A stretch of 64,000 nt of DNA, taken from contig OZ244561.1 of assembly GCA_965217585.1 (NCBI GenBank), forward strand, positions 2,080,001 to 2,144,000, given 5' to 3'. The notes below the pieces were generated by a model. That model had not been told where the DNA came from. It did not search any database and was given only the letters and a program-made list of their open reading frames with translations. Below, piece after piece: positions 46,721 to 51,445 of this stretch; position 1 is the first letter of the stretch; every line of letters starts with the position of its first letter. Both the position numbers and the translations under genes were made by a program. The stretch comes from Candidatus Latescibacterota bacterium. Lineage in GTDB: Bacteria > Latescibacterota > UBA2968 > UBA8231.

Positions 46721-48358
46721 ATGGCTACATCCTACCGCGACGCCCTAGAACACATCCGCCGCGCCTTTCCCCAACCAGTATCCGACCCCATTCACGATTC
46801 GTATTTCGTGCATTCCATCATGCGTGCCTTGGATCAGGTCGATGCGCTGAAGATGCAGTTGCCGACGCTTGGTCCGGTGGTTTCTGGCGACTTTGCTGAA
46901 GCGCAAAACGCCGAGCTGCCCGCTGAGATGTCTTCGGTCGAGGCGGTTACCTCCGATCTCGTCAGCTACCTGCGCGGCATAACCATCTCCAGCCATCCCC
47001 ACACCCAACAAAACGTCATCGCGCCCCCGACCATCCCCAGCCTCATCGGCGTCTTACTCGCCTCGTTGCACAACCCCAACATCGCCTGGGATGAGTACAG
47101 CCGTCTCGTCGCCTTGGCCGAAGTCGAAGCGGTCGGCATTACCGCGCGGATGGTTGGCTACGACCCACAACAGGCCAGCGGCACGTTTACCTTTGGCGGG
47201 ACCGGCACCACGCTCTATGGGGTAAAGATCGGTCTGGAAAAAGCCTGCCCCCGGGCCATGGACCAGGGCGTACCTAAAGATGTAGTGGTCCTCGTTTCCG
47301 ACGCCGGGCACTATTGCGCCCACAACATCGTCGGATGGCTCGGCATTGGCACCGACCAGTTGATCGTCATTCCGACAATAGCCGACAACGAAATCGACCT
47401 CGCGCAGCTAGCGGATGCAGCGCGGGGGGCCTTGGACAGCGGAAAAAAGATCGCCGCCATTATTGCGACTATGGGGACTACGGATGCGTTCGGCTTGGAC
47501 GACTTGCAGGCGATTGCGACCTTGCGCGACTCGCTCGTCGATGAATTCCAACTCTCCTACCGCCCGCACATCCACGCCGACTCGGTCATTGGCTGGGCGT
47601 GGTCGGTGTTCAACGACTACGATTTTCAGGACAACCCCTTGGAGTTTCGACCGCGGACCCTGCGCGCCCTCGCTGGCGCGTGCCGGCGCATCCGCCATCT
47701 GGCGCTGGCCGATTCCATGGGCATTGACTTCCACAAGACCGGCTTTGCCCCGTATATCTCCAGCCTGGTCCTCGTCAAAGATCGCACGGATTTGCACCTA
47801 CTGATACGCAGCCCGGAGCAGATGCCGTACCTCTATCACTTTGGCGACCACCGCCCCGGCATGTACACTCTCGAAACATCCAGAGCCGGGACCGGCCCAC
47901 TGACTGCGCTGGCCAATTTTCGCTTTTTCGGCGAGCAGGGATTGCGCGTCGCACTCGGGCACATCGTCGAGATGACCCAGCTTTTGCGCGAGCACCTCGA
48001 AGGACACGAAGCCATCACCGTGCTCAACCGCGACAACTTTGGCACGGTAACGCTCTTCCGGGTGTATCCACCCGACGTGGATACTTTTGCGATCAAGCGC
48101 CAAGAATTTGACGATCCGGCCTATCGGGAGACGCTGCTAGCCCACAACGACTACAACCGAAAAATTTTCGATTACGTGCATGCGGAGGCCATGGCCGGAC
48201 GCGGGGTCGTCCTTTCCTCGACCGACTGCTACCGGCACACCCAATATCAGGAACCGATTGTCGCGCTGAAGTCCTTTATCGTGTCGCCGTTTGTGGATGA
48301 AGGGGATATCGAAGTCGTAGTGGCAAAGGTCTTGGAAGCAAGAGAAAAGCTCGCCTGA
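46721..48358 (+). CDS. Group II PLP-dependent decarboxylase
   Basis: FTFGGTG, HY, ATMGTTDAFGLDD, HIHAD, DSMGIDFHK (PLP Lys) and TLETSR. Confidence 0.9.
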   Translation: MATSYRDALEHIRRAFPQPVSDPIHDSYFVHSIMRALDQVDALKMQLPTLGPVVSGDFAEAQNAELPAEMSSVEAVTSDLVSYLRGITISSHPHTQQNVIAPPTIPSLIGVLLASLHNPNIAWDEYSRLVALAEVEAVGITARMVGYDPQQASGTFTFGGTGTTLYGVKIGLEKACPRAMDQGVPKDVVVLVSDAGHYCAHNIVGWLGIGTDQLIVIPTIADNEIDLAQLADAARGALDSGKKIAAIIATMGTTDAFGLDDLQAIATLRDSLVDEFQLSYRPHIHADSVIGWAWSVFNDYDFQDNPLEFRPRTLRALAGACRRIRHLALADSMGIDFHKTGFAPYISSLVLVKDRTDLHLLIRSPEQMPYLYHFGDHRPGMYTLETSRAGTGPLTALANFRFFGEQGLRVALGHIVEMTQLLREHLEGHEAITVLNRDNFGTVTLFRVYPPDVDTFAIKRQEFDDPAYRETLLAHNDYNRKIFDYVHAEAMAGRGVVLSSTDCYRHTQYQEPIVALKSFIVSPFVDEGDIEVVVAKVLEAREKLA

Positions 48359-48366
48359 AGCCGCCG

Positions 48367-49731
48367 CTATTTCTCCTGCGCTACCACGGCGTCCCGGATT
48401 TCGCGGATGGTGCCTTCCAGCCGGTCTAGACGCTCGTTGGTGTCTTTTATGTCTTCCTGAATTTTCGTTACGATCCCGACCTGCTCTTCAAGCTCCTCGA
48501 CCTTCAAGGAGTCCTCATCGCTTACGAGGATGCTCGTCAGCGTCGCCGTAAAAACACCCACTAGAACCATACCCGTAATCACCAGAAAAACGGTGAGGAT
48601 TTTGCCCGAAGCCGTCTCGGGATTGTGGATGTCGGCGTACCCACCGGTGACCAGCGTCGTAAAACTCCACCAAAGACTCGCCCAGAATCCCGAACCAGAA
48701 TCCATGCGCTCCAAGCCCATGAAAATGCAGGCCCCAAACACGAGCGATAACAAGCCGTATAGTAGGGACCGCTTGAGGAGCCGCACGTCCAAGGTGGAGC
48801 TCAAGTGATCCATGCCTCGCCAGAAAAACAGCGCGATGCGGAACACTCTCAGCGCCCGCAAAATCCGCATGGCCCGGAGCAGACGCCCGAGGCGGACAAA
48901 CTCCAGTTGGCCGGACGCGGCAATGACTTGCACTGGAGGCAGCGGAATGGACGTTATGAAGTCGATCCAGTTGCGCTTCCAGTACCACTTTTTGGACGCG
49001 GCGAGGGTGTGTTCAAAAAAGAAGTTGACCATAAAAACCGTGCAGCAGATCACGTCGAGGATCCAAAATAGCCACAGCTTGCCGACTGCAAAGTGGGGCG
49101 CGATCTCCACTGTGGGATTGACGTAGTGTTCGCCGGCCTCAATGACTTCCACTTGGGTTAGCTTGCCCTCGACGACCTGCCCGGTAACCAAGGCACCAGA
49201 CCCCACTTTGTCCTCTATTTCAATATTCACCCGTTCGTAGCTAGTGCCCTCACTCAGAACGACGACTCGGCGTATCTGGCCGTTCTCAACTTCGGCTCGG
49301 GCAACGGCCCCGCCGCCAGTGGCCCCAATGCCGAGCAAGTCAACCACCAGAATGCCAATAATAAAAAGGATGAGGAAAAAGATGAGCATGTCTTTGACCA
49401 TCACCCTTTTGGTACTGCCAAGCACCCGCGCCTGTTGGTTCATCAGGTGCTTCTTTTGCCGTGCTTCCTCAATGATCGCGGCCTTGTCTAGCAGCTTATC
49501 TTTTTCGGCGTTTAACCTTGCGATCTGCGATTCAGCTTTATCCAGATTCAGTTCGTATTGGCCGTGCCTTTTGCTCAAACTGACCGTTTCTACCTTCTCG
49601 ATCATTTCGTCGAGTTCTTTTTCTTTTTCGGCTAGCTGACGGTCAATACTATCTATCTCCTGCATTACCACATCCTTCATCTTGGTAATGCGTTCGAGAG
49701 AGCACGATTCCAGTCGCTTTGAGAATGACAT
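48367..49731 (-). CDS. 6-TM voltage-sensor cation channel-like protein
   Basis: N- and C-terminal coiled coils, NWIDFITSIP (S3), RLGRLLRAMRILRALRVFR (S4), WWSFTTLVTGGYAD pore and a hydrophobic S6. Confidence 0.88.
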   Translation of the reverse strand: MSFSKRLESCSLERITKMKDVVMQEIDSIDRQLAEKEKELDEMIEKVETVSLSKRHGQYELNLDKAESQIARLNAEKDKLLDKAAIIEEARQKKHLMNQQARVLGSTKRVMVKDMLIFFLILFIIGILVVDLLGIGATGGGAVARAEVENGQIRRVVVLSEGTSYERVNIEIEDKVGSGALVTGQVVEGKLTQVEVIEAGEHYVNPTVEIAPHFAVGKLWLFWILDVICCTVFMVNFFFEHTLAASKKWYWKRNWIDFITSIPLPPVQVIAASGQLEFVRLGRLLRAMRILRALRVFRIALFFWRGMDHLSSTLDVRLLKRSLLYGLLSLVFGACIFMGLERMDSGSGFWASLWWSFTTLVTGGYADIHNPETASGKILTVFLVITGMVLVGVFTATLTSILVSDEDSLKVEELEEQVGIVTKIQEDIKDTNERLDRLEGTIREIRDAVVAQEK

Positions 49732-49771
49732 GGTCTGTCGTCCTGTGTAGTTTGCGGGTCCTCGATCCCTC

Positions 49772-51445
49772 TCAGAACAACCCCTTGATCTGTCCTGCGT
49801 CGTCGAGGTCAATCGACTCGGCCGAGGGCTTCTTTGGCAGGCCAGGCATCGTCATAATATCGCCCGTCAGCACCACCACAAAGCCAGCCCCCGCCGAGAC
49901 CTTGACGTCGCGGATCGGCACGTCAAAGCCGCGCGGCCGCCCTTTGAGCCCAGGATCGGTCGATAGCGAGTACTGGGTCTTGGCGATGCAGACGGGCAGG
50001 TTGCCGTAGCCTTCGTCCTCCAGCCGCCTGAACTTGCTCCGCAGCATCTTGTCGCCCATGATGTCGTCGGCCCCGTAGATCGCTTGGGCAACGGTGCGGA
50101 CCTTGTCCCAAAGCCGCATGTCATCGGGATAGAGCAACTTGAAATCACTCTGCGTGTTTTCGGCCACCTGTACCACGGTGCGGGCGAGGTCTTCGGCACC
50201 CGCGCCACCGCGAGCGTGGTGATCCGCGGGGACGATCTCAACGCCGAGGTGAGCGCACTTGTCGTGGATGGACTGAATCTCGTCGTCGGTGTCCGTGGCG
50301 AAGGCATTGACGGCTACGACGACGGGCAAGCCGAAGAGGCGGATGTTTTCGATGTGCTTCTTGAGGTTTTCGACGCCCCGTTCAACCGCCCCGACATTGG
50401 GTTTGGCGATGCTTTTGAGCGCGGCACCGCCGTGAAATTTGAGTGCGCGCACCGTGGCTACCAATACTACGAGGTCGGGTGCTAGGCCACTCTGGCGGCA
50501 CTTGATGTTGGCGAATTTTTCCGCGCCCAAGTCCGCGCCAAAGCCGGCCTCGGTGACGGTGTATTCGGATAGGCGCGTGCTCAGGCGGGTGGCGGCGATG
50601 GAGTTGCAGCCGTGGGCAATATTGGCAAAAGGACCGCCGTGGACTAAAGCCGGGTTGCCCTCTAGGGTCTGCACCAAGTTGGGTTGGCAGGCGTCCTTGA
50701 GCAGCACTGCCATAGCGCCGTGGACCGCTAGGTCCGCAGCGCGAACGGTCTCGCGGGCGCGGGTCTGGGCGACGACGATCCGGCCCAGCCGCTCTTTGAG
50801 CTCGGCCCGCGATTCGGACAGGCAGAGGATGGCCATGACCTCCGAGGCGACGGCAATGTCGAACCCCGATTGGCGCGGAAAGGAGTTGGCAGTCCCCCCT
50901 AGCCCAACGACGATCTCGCGCAGTGCCCGGTCATTTATATCGAGGACGCGGTTCCAGACGATGCGGCGGTGATCAATGCGGCGCACATTGCCGTGGTGGA
51001 TGTAGTTGTCGAGGGCCGCGGCGAGTAGGTTGTGCGCGGTGGAGACGGCGTGGATATCGCCAGTGAAGTGCAAGTTGATGTCCTCCATCGGTGCCACCTG
51101 AGCGTAGCCGCCGCCAGCACCGCCGCCCTTCATGCCGAAGCAAGGCCCCAGCGAAGGCTCCCGCAGGCAGACAGTGGCGCGCTTGCCAATGCGGTTGAGC
51201 GCGTCGCCGAGGCCGATGGTGGTTGTGGTCTTGCCCTCGCCAGCCGGAGTCGGGTTGATGGCCGAGACGAGGACCAACTTGCCGGTAGTCGGTGCGTTTT
51301 CGAGCTGCTGGCAGAAATCCTGCGAGATCTTGGCCTTGACGCGGCCATAGTGTTCGAGGTGTTCGGAGCCGATCCCGAGTTGGGCGGCCACGTCGTCGAT
51401 GGGGCGGAGTGAGGTCTGGCGAGCGATTTCGATATCCGGTAGCAA
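49772..51445 (-). CDS. fhs: Formate--tetrahydrofolate ligase
   Basis: [58 protein letters not shown] and MTMPGLP; TTG after AGGAG. Confidence 0.97.

Follow-up and report, generated by a model that had tools for sequence, protein, structure and literature searches.

The gene on the minus strand at positions 48367..49731 of the window (the whole stretch of 64,000 nucleotides that was analysed) encodes a protein which, judged from its sequence, belongs to the tetrameric cation-channel superfamily as a six-helix protein of the voltage-sensor type. An 83-residue all-beta insert lies in the loop between its first two transmembrane helices (S1 and S2), and profile and model comparisons indicate that the two repeats of this insert and those of phage structural proteins are units of one kind. 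The channel superfamily itself is already known; what is new here is a channel variant with a phage-type S1–S2 module. We propose, with a probability of roughly 0.55, that the protein is a cation channel gated by voltage whose selectivity for K+ is weakened, and in which a periplasmic module would have a tuning or sensing function at the voltage sensor.

Gene Call and Overall Architecture

The coding sequence (454 aa plus stop, labelled P0001) begins at the ATG at 49731, the start common to all 454-aa homologues, in agreement with the coordinates given by the sequence-only reading. If a TTG is taken as start, the open frame extends to 48367..49812; this start is disfavoured since it would overlap the upstream fhs gene, whose stop is at 49772. 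The gene is single-copy in the genome and its dN/dS indicates purifying selection. The frame was intact, with 0 internal stops, in 49 of the 168 genomes of the phylum, all regions were under purifying selection, and both structure models (whole protein and insert) were confident, so that a decaying or chimeric ORF without function is extremely improbable.

The membrane part was recognised by Pfam Ion_trans (PF00520; residues 220–401, E 3.9e-15, 56.2 bits for a gathering cut-off of 25) and by Ion_trans_2 (E 5.4e-10, 39.5 bits for a cut-off of 22.5). No NCBIfam model came near its cut-off. The closest solved relatives by sequence (HMMER) were KvAP (6.9e-12), Kv2.1, Kv1.2 and Kv1.3. The best fold matches of the full model were Kv4.2, KCNQ2, Kv1.2-2.1 and Kv2.1; 48 matches reached E <= 0.001, and the identity to the solved channels of this set was just 20–26%.

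In the AlphaFold2 model, the putatively cytoplasmic N-terminal region (residues 1–105, 49417..49731) forms a helical hairpin, with helices at residues 12–45 and 62–104 and a beta-hairpin at 52–61. A coiled-coil N-terminus of about 100 residues had been read from the sequence; the helices stand, but they are modelled as a helical hairpin, and Pfam matches to coiled-coil families were sub-threshold only. Most family members also have N-terminal helices, their matches falling into two stretches. At the other end of the protein, a predicted cytoplasmic helix (residues 404–454, 48370..48522) is continuous with S6 in a single modelled helix spanning residues 374–453. We are highly confident that the architecture as a whole (helical hairpin, S1–S4, K-channel-like pore, long C-terminal helix and insert) is correct.

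Voltage Sensor

S1 (residues 107–133, 49333..49413) is a helix in the model and aligns with the S1 of insert-less relatives. S2 (residues 217–243, 49003..49083) and S3 (residues 247–272, 48916..48993) were placed by alignment, conservation and model. The voltage-sensor helix S4 (residues 278–305, 48817..48900) was placed by sequence and conservation and is poorly modelled, with a pLDDT below 50 for residues 275–286 (AlphaFold2). It bears an Arg at every third residue, seven in register (R280, R283, R286, R289, R292, R295 and R298), and the six from R283 to R298 were at least 90% conserved among 56 family members. In S2, the invariant D226 aligns with the outer acid of Kv2.1 and F233 with the charge-transfer Phe of Kv channels, both residues being conserved in the same 56 members. 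D257 in S3 aligns with the Kv S3 Asp and was at least 90% conserved. The Kv acid site three residues after the S2 Phe is occupied by N236, and an acid, E240, is found one turn lower; the sensor is thus not fully canonical.

The channel shares with KvAP, Kv1.2 and Kv2.1 (Ion_trans) the six-helix layout and the spacing of the S4 arginines, and the S2 Phe, the S3 Asp, the pore-helix WW and the post-filter Asp are all aligned. It differs from Kv channels by the 83-residue S1–S2 beta module, which they lack, and by the helical hairpin that replaces the Kv T1 domain. A voltage-sensor channel with an Arg-rich S4, as first read from the sequence, is therefore well founded on the Ion_trans match, the seven-Arg S4 and the Kv-type sequence and fold matches.

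Pore and Selectivity Filter

S5 (residues 317–341, 48709..48783) was placed by the model inside the Ion_trans match. The pore helix and selectivity filter follow (residues 349–371, 48619..48687), and then the inner helix S6 (residues 374–403, 48523..48612), placed by the model within the most conserved region of the protein (residues 306–403, 94% mean identity among 48 orthologues). The pore segment, residues 354–371, reads WWSFTTLVTGGYADIHNP, with the filter T362-G-G-Y-A-D367 followed by I-H-N-P. It aligned column by column with KvAP (HMMER), TGGYA facing TVGYG and a single additional residue preceding the Pro. The replacement of TTVGYGD by TGGYAD noted from the sequence alone thus falls exactly on the K+ signature. 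T362, G364, Y365 and D367 are kept, whereas the aliphatic Val or Ile after the signature Thr is replaced by G363 and the second Gly of G-Y-G by A366.

This filter is a family trait. Among the 150 best representative clusters, a regex search found 77 filters of the TGG/TQG/SGG type and 27 of the T[VI]GY[GA]D type, and gave no match in the other 46. In each of the 77 family-type filters the Thr was followed by Gly (or Gln or Ala), and the second-Gly position was Gly in 41, Ala in 33, Thr in 2 and Ser in 1. TGGFGD, the commonest filter of the family, nevertheless agrees with T-x-G-[YF]-G-D.

The pore would pass cations, and its selectivity for K+ over Na+ may be weakened, as suggested by the Gly in place of an aliphatic residue at x, the Ala for the second Gly and the residue added after the filter. 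According to the relevant passages of a review, Kv2.1 V378A and TREK-1 I267T, which are mutated at the x of TxG[YF]G, admit Na+ (PMC12658365). By analogy with these mutants at the same filter position, we give reduced K+ selectivity an even chance. Good K+ selectivity is also conceivable, since TGGFGD fits the signature and the pore helix, with its WW and post-filter Asp, is K-channel-like. Searches of the open-access PMC and bioRxiv literature for the filter and pore motif strings, and for G79A together with KcsA, returned nothing relevant.

A bacterial branch of the K-channel superfamily with a changed filter on a conserved scaffold has been described as NirBac, which is functionally non-selective in the account given in parts of PMC4607889. 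According to the same parts, NirBac channels are two-helix, Kir-type proteins with pore loops unrelated to any known filter (PMC4607889); the loop found here, in contrast, departs little from the K+ signature and sits on the scaffold of a voltage-sensor channel.

The S1–S2 Insert

The insert covers residues 134–216 (49084..49332), between S1 and S2: the Ion_trans match begins only at residue 220, at profile position 34, and S1 leads to S2 without the two-repeat insert in 45 of 50 aligned family members, the remaining five possessing it. In the model it is compact and all-beta, with six strands and no helix, and is confidently predicted (pLDDT 89.8 overall, 94–98 in the core). Repeat 1 (residues 139–174, 49210..49317) consists of three strands at residues 143–149, 152–160 and 167–173, and repeat 2 (residues 177–211, 49099..49203) of three strands at 181–187, 190–198 and 207–213 (sequence and AlphaFold2). 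The repeats, which together occupy nucleotides 49099–49317 (residues 139–211), are each about 36 aa long, with 11 of 36 positions identical between them when compared by eye. The two-repeat beta domain announced by the sequence-only reading was thus recovered, with a confident fold, three strands per repeat and a position fixed by the family alignment.

The insert had no Pfam family match. Against solved structures, the best Foldseek E-value was 0.33, and the best of 48,161 chains compared by VIA-align reached Z 3.7, none being at Z >= 5; these searches yielded only a generic Ig/FN3-like resemblance. Neither Pfam nor the solved-structure searches gave a match to a carbohydrate-binding family or fold. 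Only six insert columns were invariant across phyla, all of them Gly or Tyr and structural-looking, and no surface patch was conserved across phyla. As the insert is also the least conserved part of the protein, a single conserved ligand site is disfavoured.

The relatives of the insert were found among phage proteins. It matched the PHROG family phrog_2885, 'baseplate wedge subunit', at E 5e-11 and phrog_701 at E 1.4e-6, and ten PHROG families at E <= 0.1 in total, with baseplate wedge and virion structural families among them. In BFVD, where predicted models are compared with predicted models, there were 16 matches at E <= 0.001 with a probability of 1.00 and TMq values of 0.58–0.83, 15 of them at 0.69–0.83. 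A profile made from 25 channel inserts in turn matched the phage-type protein P0181 (3161 aa) in 33 stretches, with successive matches beginning approximately 36–41 residues apart. In the ESM Atlas the top three matches, at 0.79 and thus below the level that is meaningful for this tool, were viral hypothetical proteins. Phage virion proteins were the sole non-channel relatives of the module in sequence and fold searches. The likeness to phage structural units suspected from the sequence is hence supported both by the PHROG match and by the fold search of the insert, which gave models of phage proteins at TM 0.70–0.83.

The phage repeat is approximately 37–40 residues long (phrog_2885, 701, 438, 708, 4406 and 19630; cyanophage 'structural protein' and 'baseplate wedge'), has no Pfam model, and no solved structure of it appeared in the structure searches. 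The two-repeat fold of the channel superposes on several of its models with 0.7–2 A rmsd over about 80 residues, and a Gly/Tyr turn signature is common to both. The identity between channel insert and phage copies is only 18–32%. The phage repeat forms long tandem arrays in virion proteins, whereas the channel has two copies in a cellular membrane protein. The searches revealed no recent phage donor: the insert had no tblastn match among 50,697 phage records, and a pattern scan of viral contigs with a single insert sequence gave 60 pattern matches, 0 of which were confirmed. No longer proteins carrying the insert were found by a word-indexed search, which counts as weak evidence, and a search of open-access PMC and bioRxiv with the phage repeat motif strings gave nothing relevant. 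The module was found nowhere else in the 7.3-Mb genome. Its only match was the channel gene in 49 of the 168 genomes of the phylum; a fiftieth genome, with no channel, had one weak match in a 1764-aa open frame.

Clade, Distribution and Selection

By its sequence the channel falls within an uncharacterised clade whose hallmark is a TGG[FY][GA]D filter, with the pore motif WWSFTTxVTGG[FY][GA]D[IL][HY]NP. In a tree built on S2–S6 columns only, leaving the insert out, the family split from six TVGYGD outgroups with an SH-aLRT of 99. The insert-less TGGFGD/TGGFAD channels (titled Planctomycetota, Myxococcota, Kiritimatiellia, Leptolyngbya and Marinimicrobia) form the majority of the clade and share the pore motif, the N-terminal helices, S4 and the C-terminal helix. 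They are 26–42% identical over the full length and 37–48% in aligned core segments, and differ by an S1–S2 loop that is mostly short (12–20 aa at 10 of 17 insert-less loci whose loop was measured). The filter and the insert had originally been taken as one joint novelty; they are separate features, as the filter marks a wider, mostly insert-less clade.

The survey of the family with respect to the insert found it in five of the 50 full-length representatives, from Latescibacterota, Verrucomicrobiota and one MAG titled Pseudomonadota. Four of them form a clade in the core-only tree (support 95), and the fifth joins these in a six-member clade (95) that includes one insert-less member, P0155. 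This clustering suggests that the insert was likely acquired once. The module is dispensable for channel function, as judged from its absence in 45 of the 50 representatives and in P0155, a close relative of an insert-bearing member. All 58 insert-bearing loci, spanning at least two phyla, have a segment of 89–93 aa, that is, two repeats. The insert is the fastest-evolving region (64% mean identity); among the 48 orthologues its dN/dS was approximately 0.17, a rough value with dS near saturation, and that of the pore 0.06. An unrelated insert of 52–64 aa was found at the same S1–S2 site in seven Planctomycetota loci, mostly Pirellulaceae. P0224 also carries an unrelated insert at this site.

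Genomic Neighbourhood

The neighbours are housekeeping genes: FTHFS (fhs), a PLP decarboxylase, a TonB receptor and an SDR. Gene order is stable within the genus. These four neighbours recur only where the relative's channel shows an identity of 76% or more; in relatives beyond these, the channel is flanked by unrelated genes. An operon-level link was rejected for want of a conserved gene partner beyond the relatives at this identity. At loci keeping the gene order, the channel was 81–83% identical while the flanking genes were mostly at 93–96%. PADLOC found no defence system among the channel and its four neighbours, and promoter and terminator scans gave nothing above shuffle expectation. 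Metatranscriptome contigs from two studies, with 92–99% likeness, covered 24–29 of the 30 bins of window positions 48000–50200; these contigs may be DNA carry-over and are no proof of transcription, and uncovered bins are uninformative. The RNA rows labelled sponge or coral metagenome covered only 0.07–0.11 of words, which is not a habitat indication.

Proposed Function and Alternatives

The protein would be an inner-membrane homotetramer with the insert modules facing the periplasm, as superfamily membership, a Lys/Arg-rich stretch before S1 and the acidic character of the insert suggest. Just 2–9 residues or so without regular secondary structure join the insert to S1 and S2 in the model. 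Each voltage sensor would be rigidly capped by its module, and two three-strand repeats may be the minimum number that returns the chain to the membrane. Such a cap would either set the voltage range of the sensor or confer a response to the periplasm or envelope, in which case the agent sensed would most likely be a glycan or an envelope component. A gating or sensing role of the module, proposed from sequence, is put forward tentatively.

It is also possible, if somewhat unlikely, that the protein is an ordinary K+-selective voltage-gated channel in which the insert is a captured loop decoration, neutral or stabilising. The fit of the family consensus TGGFGD to the K+ signature and the alignment of the pore helix and post-filter Asp with KvAP speak for such a pore, against which stand the Gly at x combined with the Ala for the second Gly and the Na+ leak that smaller x residues cause in Kv2.1 and TREK-1, as described in those passages of PMC12658365. 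A mere decoration would agree with an insert that is the most variable region and is missing in nine-tenths of the representatives and in one relative of an insert-bearing member, but not with the constant two-repeat length in 58 of 58 loci from at least two phyla or with a dN/dS of about 0.17. Phage baseplates, fibres and necks are parts that contact cell surfaces. The occurrence of the same repeat in long arrays of baseplate, fibre and neck proteins, and the predicted projection of the module into the periplasm, could mean that it is an anchor binding peptidoglycan or another envelope polymer and fixing or clustering the channel. We consider this improbable, given that no carbohydrate-binding family or fold was matched, that no surface patch is conserved across phyla and that 80 residues extend only a short distance into the periplasm.

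The phage relationship raises two further alternatives. In one, which we regard as very unlikely, the module is a receptor: contact with a phage part, or with envelope material that infection or stress has disturbed, would move the sensor and open the weakly selective pore, depolarising the cell. In the other, a still fainter prospect, phage particles are what the module recognises, or it imitates a phage part, making the channel a phage-sensing or abortive-infection depolariser, a decoy or a receptor. Phage virion proteins are indeed the only non-channel relatives of the module, which evolves fastest within the protein, and the channel has diverged more than its flanking genes. The absence of a PADLOC match, the housekeeping neighbours, the single-copy gene in a stable order within the genus, the failure to find a close phage relative of the insert and a dN/dS well below 1 all argue against this second alternative. 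Were the receptor reading true, the protein would be a sensor-coupled voltage-sensor channel of a kind undescribed in bacteria, and the S1–S2 site would be a place where periplasmic sensors can generally be plugged in, the Planctomycetota and P0224 inserts being further cases.

Returning to the voltage-gated channel with a tuning or sensing module, a comparable layout exists in polycystin-2. As described in parts of PMC7229662, its TOP domain lies between S1 and S2, comprises 227 residues that form three helices and a sheet of five strands, makes inter-subunit contacts and is proposed to couple the voltage-sensor-like domain and the pore. The polycystin-2 and TRPML TOP domain, as far as described there, is likewise a folded extracytoplasmic S1–S2 domain of a six-helix tetrameric cation channel, the outer face being a prediction in our case. 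The channel module differs from it in having about 80 residues, all beta and of the phage-repeat type, without the TOP fold, and is probably too small to reach neighbouring subunits. No evidence of homology to TOP was obtained, and no polycystin entry was present among the insert fold matches listed. Voltage-sensor domains are usually modulated externally, by toxins, lipids or accessory subunits, and we know of no built-in folded S1–S2 loop domain beyond the polycystin/TRPML group. The claim that the architecture is undescribed held: searches of NCBIfam, the PDB and open-access PMC and bioRxiv brought up neither a characterised family nor a solved structure or paper showing the same layout, and no bacterial channel with a periplasmic S1–S2 insert was found in the same literature.

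The protein exemplifies how a structural module of phages can be reused by a membrane protein of a cell, and the module, as a small and confidently modelled two-repeat form of a very common phage virion repeat, is a handy structure target. The clade also offers natural pairs for comparison, matched except that one partner has an extracellular module on its sensor and the other has none, and a natural series of near-K+ filters on one scaffold (TGGFGD, TGGFAD and TGGYAD) with which the roles of x and of the second Gly in selectivity can be probed.

Gene Assignment and Anatomy of the Channel

The open frame of the channel protein P0001 covered 48367..49812 (-) when counted from a TTG, a start at which the frame would run into the upstream formate-tetrahydrofolate ligase gene (stop at 49772). 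The ATG at 49731 was the start in all 454-aa homologues and gave a product of 454 aa (48367..49731). Pfam Ion_trans matched residues 220–401 (E 3.9e-15, 56.2 bits, cut-off 25) and Ion_trans_2 residues 329–403 (39.5 bits, cut-off 22.5), and no NCBIfam match came close to any cut-off. The closest solved relatives by sequence (HMMER) were KvAP (6uwm, E 6.9e-12), then Kv2.1, Kv1.2-2.1 and Kv1.3. The full AlphaFold2 model, made from a 56-sequence family alignment (mean pLDDT 78.2), had Kv4.2, KCNQ2, Kv1.2-2.1 and Kv2.1 as top PDB fold matches, with 48 matches at E <= 0.001 and low TM scores, as expected for a monomer model compared with channel subunits. P0001 belongs to the voltage-gated ion channel superfamily. 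Because it departs from the K+ signature at two positions, it should not be classed with the canonical K+ channels.

In the model, two N-terminal helices (residues 12–45 and 62–104), separated by a beta-hairpin (52–61), were followed by S1 (107–133), six insert strands (143–213; pLDDT 84–94 as averages of 10-residue blocks), S2 (216–243) and S3 (247–272). S4 (282–311) was poorly modelled, with a pLDDT below 50 at 275–286. S5 (317–341) and the pore helix (349–362) came next, and S6 and the C-terminal tail formed one continuous long helix (374–453). The Arg-rich S4 noticed in the sequence-only reading was borne out by seven arginines, at 280, 283, 286, 289, 292, 295 and 298, and R283 to R298 showed a conservation of 90% or more in the family (56-sequence alignment). 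D226 aligned with the outer S2 acid of Kv2.1, F233 with its charge-transfer Phe and D257 with its S3 Asp (HMMER). The acid found in Kv channels three residues past the S2 Phe was replaced by Asn (N236), with an acid, E240, one turn lower, so that the voltage sensor, as judged from these alignments, is near canonical rather than fully so.

The Filter and Its Clade

Residues 354–371 aligned without a gap to the KvAP pore as far as the Asp, and the T-V-G-Y-G-D of KvAP corresponded to T362-G-G-Y-A-D367 (HMMER). One additional residue, relative to KvAP, was present between the filter and the conserved Pro. Among the 1.84 billion cluster representatives searched, 4065 were relatives at E <= 0.001 and 75 of these at E <= 1e-30; the filters of the best 150 of the 4065 were sorted by regex. 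Family-type filters accounted for 77 of these 150 clusters: TGGFGD in 37, TGGFAD in 23, TGGYAD in 8, TGGYGD and TGGFTD in 2 each, and TGGFSD, TQGYAD, TQGFAD, SGGFGD and SAGFGD in one each. T[VI]GY[GA]D was found in 27 clusters, and the 46 without a regex match included many fragments. The TGGYAD filter reported earlier is present and belongs to a wider clade, the TGG-type motif being common to many relatives and not private to P0001. A tree of S2–S6 only, built by a quick method without bootstrap, split the 50 family members from six TVGYGD outgroups (SH-aLRT 99). Across 48 orthologues from Latescibacterota, the pore was the best-conserved region, with a mean identity of 94% and a dN/dS of about 0.06. 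None of the open-access literature searched for the filter and pore motif strings contained them.

We infer a reduced K+ selectivity for P0001 by analogy with two sets of pores. A review (PMC12658365) describes how a smaller residue at x of TxG[YF]G lets Na+ pass in Kv2.1 V378A and TREK-1 I267T, and the bacterial NirBac channels show that a K-channel scaffold whose filter has changed in nature can form a non-selective pore (PMC4607889). Mutations of the first Gly are described as abolishing selectivity, again in the review (PMC12658365). The family consensus TGGFGD is still within the K+ signature pattern.

The S1–S2 Insert: Two Units of a Phage Virion-Type Repeat

The insert occupied residues 134–216 (nt 49084–49332), and the repeats first noticed at 49099–49317 corresponded exactly to residues 139–211. 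When 50 full-length representatives of the family were aligned with MAFFT, it was present in five (P0001, P0080, P0152, P0153 and P0154) and absent from 45. The insert profile matched nine channel-type clusters among the best 150 representatives, fragments included. All 58 insert-bearing genome loci carried a segment of 89–93 aa, i.e., two repeats; among 17 insert-less loci measured, 10 had loops of 12–20 aa and 7 a different insert of 52–64 aa. An insert-only model from 25 sequences reached a mean pLDDT of 89.8 (core 94–98) with the strands in two sets of three, in agreement with the folded domain proposed earlier. The strands started about 9 residues past S1 and finished 2–3 residues short of S2 in the model, and few residues therefore separate the module from both helices.

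No Pfam family matched the insert, and ten phage families matched it in PHROGs, among the best being phrog_2885 ("baseplate wedge subunit", E 5e-11), phrog_701 ("virion structural protein", E 1.4e-6), and phrog_438 and phrog_708 (both "baseplate wedge subunit"). Foldseek against predicted viral structures gave 16 matches at E <= 0.001 with query-normalised TM scores of 0.58–0.83, several superposing at an rmsd of 0.7–2 A across some 80 residues. The named matches were cyanophage proteins ("Structural protein", "Baseplate wedge subunit", "Baseplate wedge initiator") and one Stenotrophomonas phage protein. Among solved structures nothing was significant with Foldseek (best E 0.33) or with VIA-align over 48,161 chains (best Z 3.7). 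P0181, one of the hits among the cluster representatives, is a protein of 3161 aa without a Pfam family that falls in phage virion families (phrog_701 at E 1.4e-126). The insert profile matched it in 33 stretches whose successive starts were about 36–41 residues apart, which confirmed that the channel module corresponds to two units of this tandem repeat. The earlier observation was confirmed and its interpretation supported in part: the suspected phage link and the folded domain were upheld. The repeat to which the module belongs is widespread in phage virions and seems common in baseplate, fibre, neck and structural proteins; it lacks a Pfam model, and the searches made here turned up no solved structure for it. 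About three quarters of P0181 consisted of the ~37–40-aa repeat. No close phage donor was found by tblastn against 50,697 phage records or by a pattern scan of viral contigs.

Other segments were seen at the same site. Planctomycetota clade members, mostly Pirellulaceae, carried the 52–64-aa insert, in which Trp, Tyr and acidic residues were abundant (L063, L065, L066, L068, L069, L071 and L075, and also protein P0170); Pfam gave no match in four loci tested. P0224 (517 aa, filter SGGFGD) had a roughly 95-residue Lys/Glu-rich segment between S1 and S2, probably helical, which would add a third type to these inserts. Insertions seem to have occurred repeatedly in the S1–S2 loop.

Distribution and Evolution

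The closest versions of the channel (68–98% identity) were in records titled Candidatus Latescibacterota MAGs, a few being titled Gemmatimonadota. Two copies at 57–58% came from one MAG titled Pseudomonadota; these insert-bearing loci, L046 and L048, were on separate contigs with similar upstream genes and may have arisen by duplication, or else stem from two strains binned together or from mis-binning. Insert-bearing versions at 40–48% were titled Verrucomicrobiota (Roseibacillus, Opitutales, Puniceicoccaceae, Verrucomicrobiales), and insert-less relatives Planctomycetota, Myxococcota, Kiritimatiellia, Leptolyngbya and Marinimicrobia. Within Latescibacterota the gene was present in 49 of 168 species genomes and 5 of 49 genera, always as one full-length copy per genome without internal stops.

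The module was confined to the channel gene in the 7.3-Mb host genome and to channel genes across the 168 genomes of the phylum, save one weak match (G094:C272:243-473, E 5.6e-8). The open frame with this match, of 1764 aa, lies at a contig end and may encode a prophage or surface protein bearing the repeat. The only other channel relative in the host genome, L082 (G000:C1:1735957-1736346 (+), outside the window), was a 281-aa open frame, presumably a shorter channel, with 34% identity to P0001 residues 256–391 (S3 to S6).

In the core-only (S2–S6) tree, four insert-bearing rows formed a clade (support 95). The fifth paired with a row lacking the insert (97), and a larger clade (95) united the six. 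This pattern is most simply explained by one gain plus one loss, or alternatively by two gains. At order-keeping loci the channel was 81–83% identical, compared with mostly 93–96% for the flanking enzymes. The differences fell chiefly in the insert, at 64% mean identity, in S1, at 68%, and in the terminal helices, at 74–75%. The dN/dS was 0.06–0.21 in all channel regions of the 48 Latescibacterota orthologues, although dS was nearly saturated for the insert.

Proposed Working of the Channel

From its superfamily membership, P0001 would be a tetramer in the inner membrane. Since a Lys/Arg-rich stretch precedes S1 and the insert is acidic, the N-terminus is predicted to be cytoplasmic and the module periplasmic, with one module above each voltage sensor. 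The N-terminal hairpin and the long helix that runs on from S6 would probably form a cytoplasmic bundle. Voltage would be the primary stimulus, given the charged S4, and the pore is probably cation-selective with a weaker K+ versus Na+ discrimination than in Kv channels.

We tentatively propose, with a probability of roughly 0.3, that the module acts as a rigid cap biasing the movement of S3–S4 or coupling it to a ligand of the periplasm or envelope. Polycystin-2's TOP domain, which shares the S1–S2 location and is treated in a published account as a proposed link between sensor and pore (PMC7229662), offers a precedent. Six strands could bring the chain back to the membrane, and with three strands per repeat this may be why exactly two repeats are kept. 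The module may instead be a neutral decoration, an anchor to the envelope, or a sensor related to phages.

Genomic Context and Transcription

The neighbours of the channel gene were a TonB-dependent receptor, a convergent PLP-dependent decarboxylase, the formate-THF ligase, on the same strand 41 nt upstream, and a short-chain dehydrogenase; PADLOC gave no match for the channel or these four. The order was common only to relatives with a channel at least 76% identical, more distant loci had unrelated neighbours, and no functional partner was seen among the loci compared. Metatranscriptome libraries from two studies yielded contigs that covered most of the gene at 92–99% likeness, a result compatible with transcription in related strains. 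At window 49734, contigs of runs X1–X3 from the RNA libraries, having followed the gene to its start codon, continued into unrelated sequence, so the related strain there has a different upstream neighbour, as is also suggested by locus L002. The GC content of the 2-kb bin with the channel gene (window 48001–50000) was 0.55, against 0.59–0.62 in the adjoining bins, which may reflect only the Lys/Glu/Ile-rich terminal helices.
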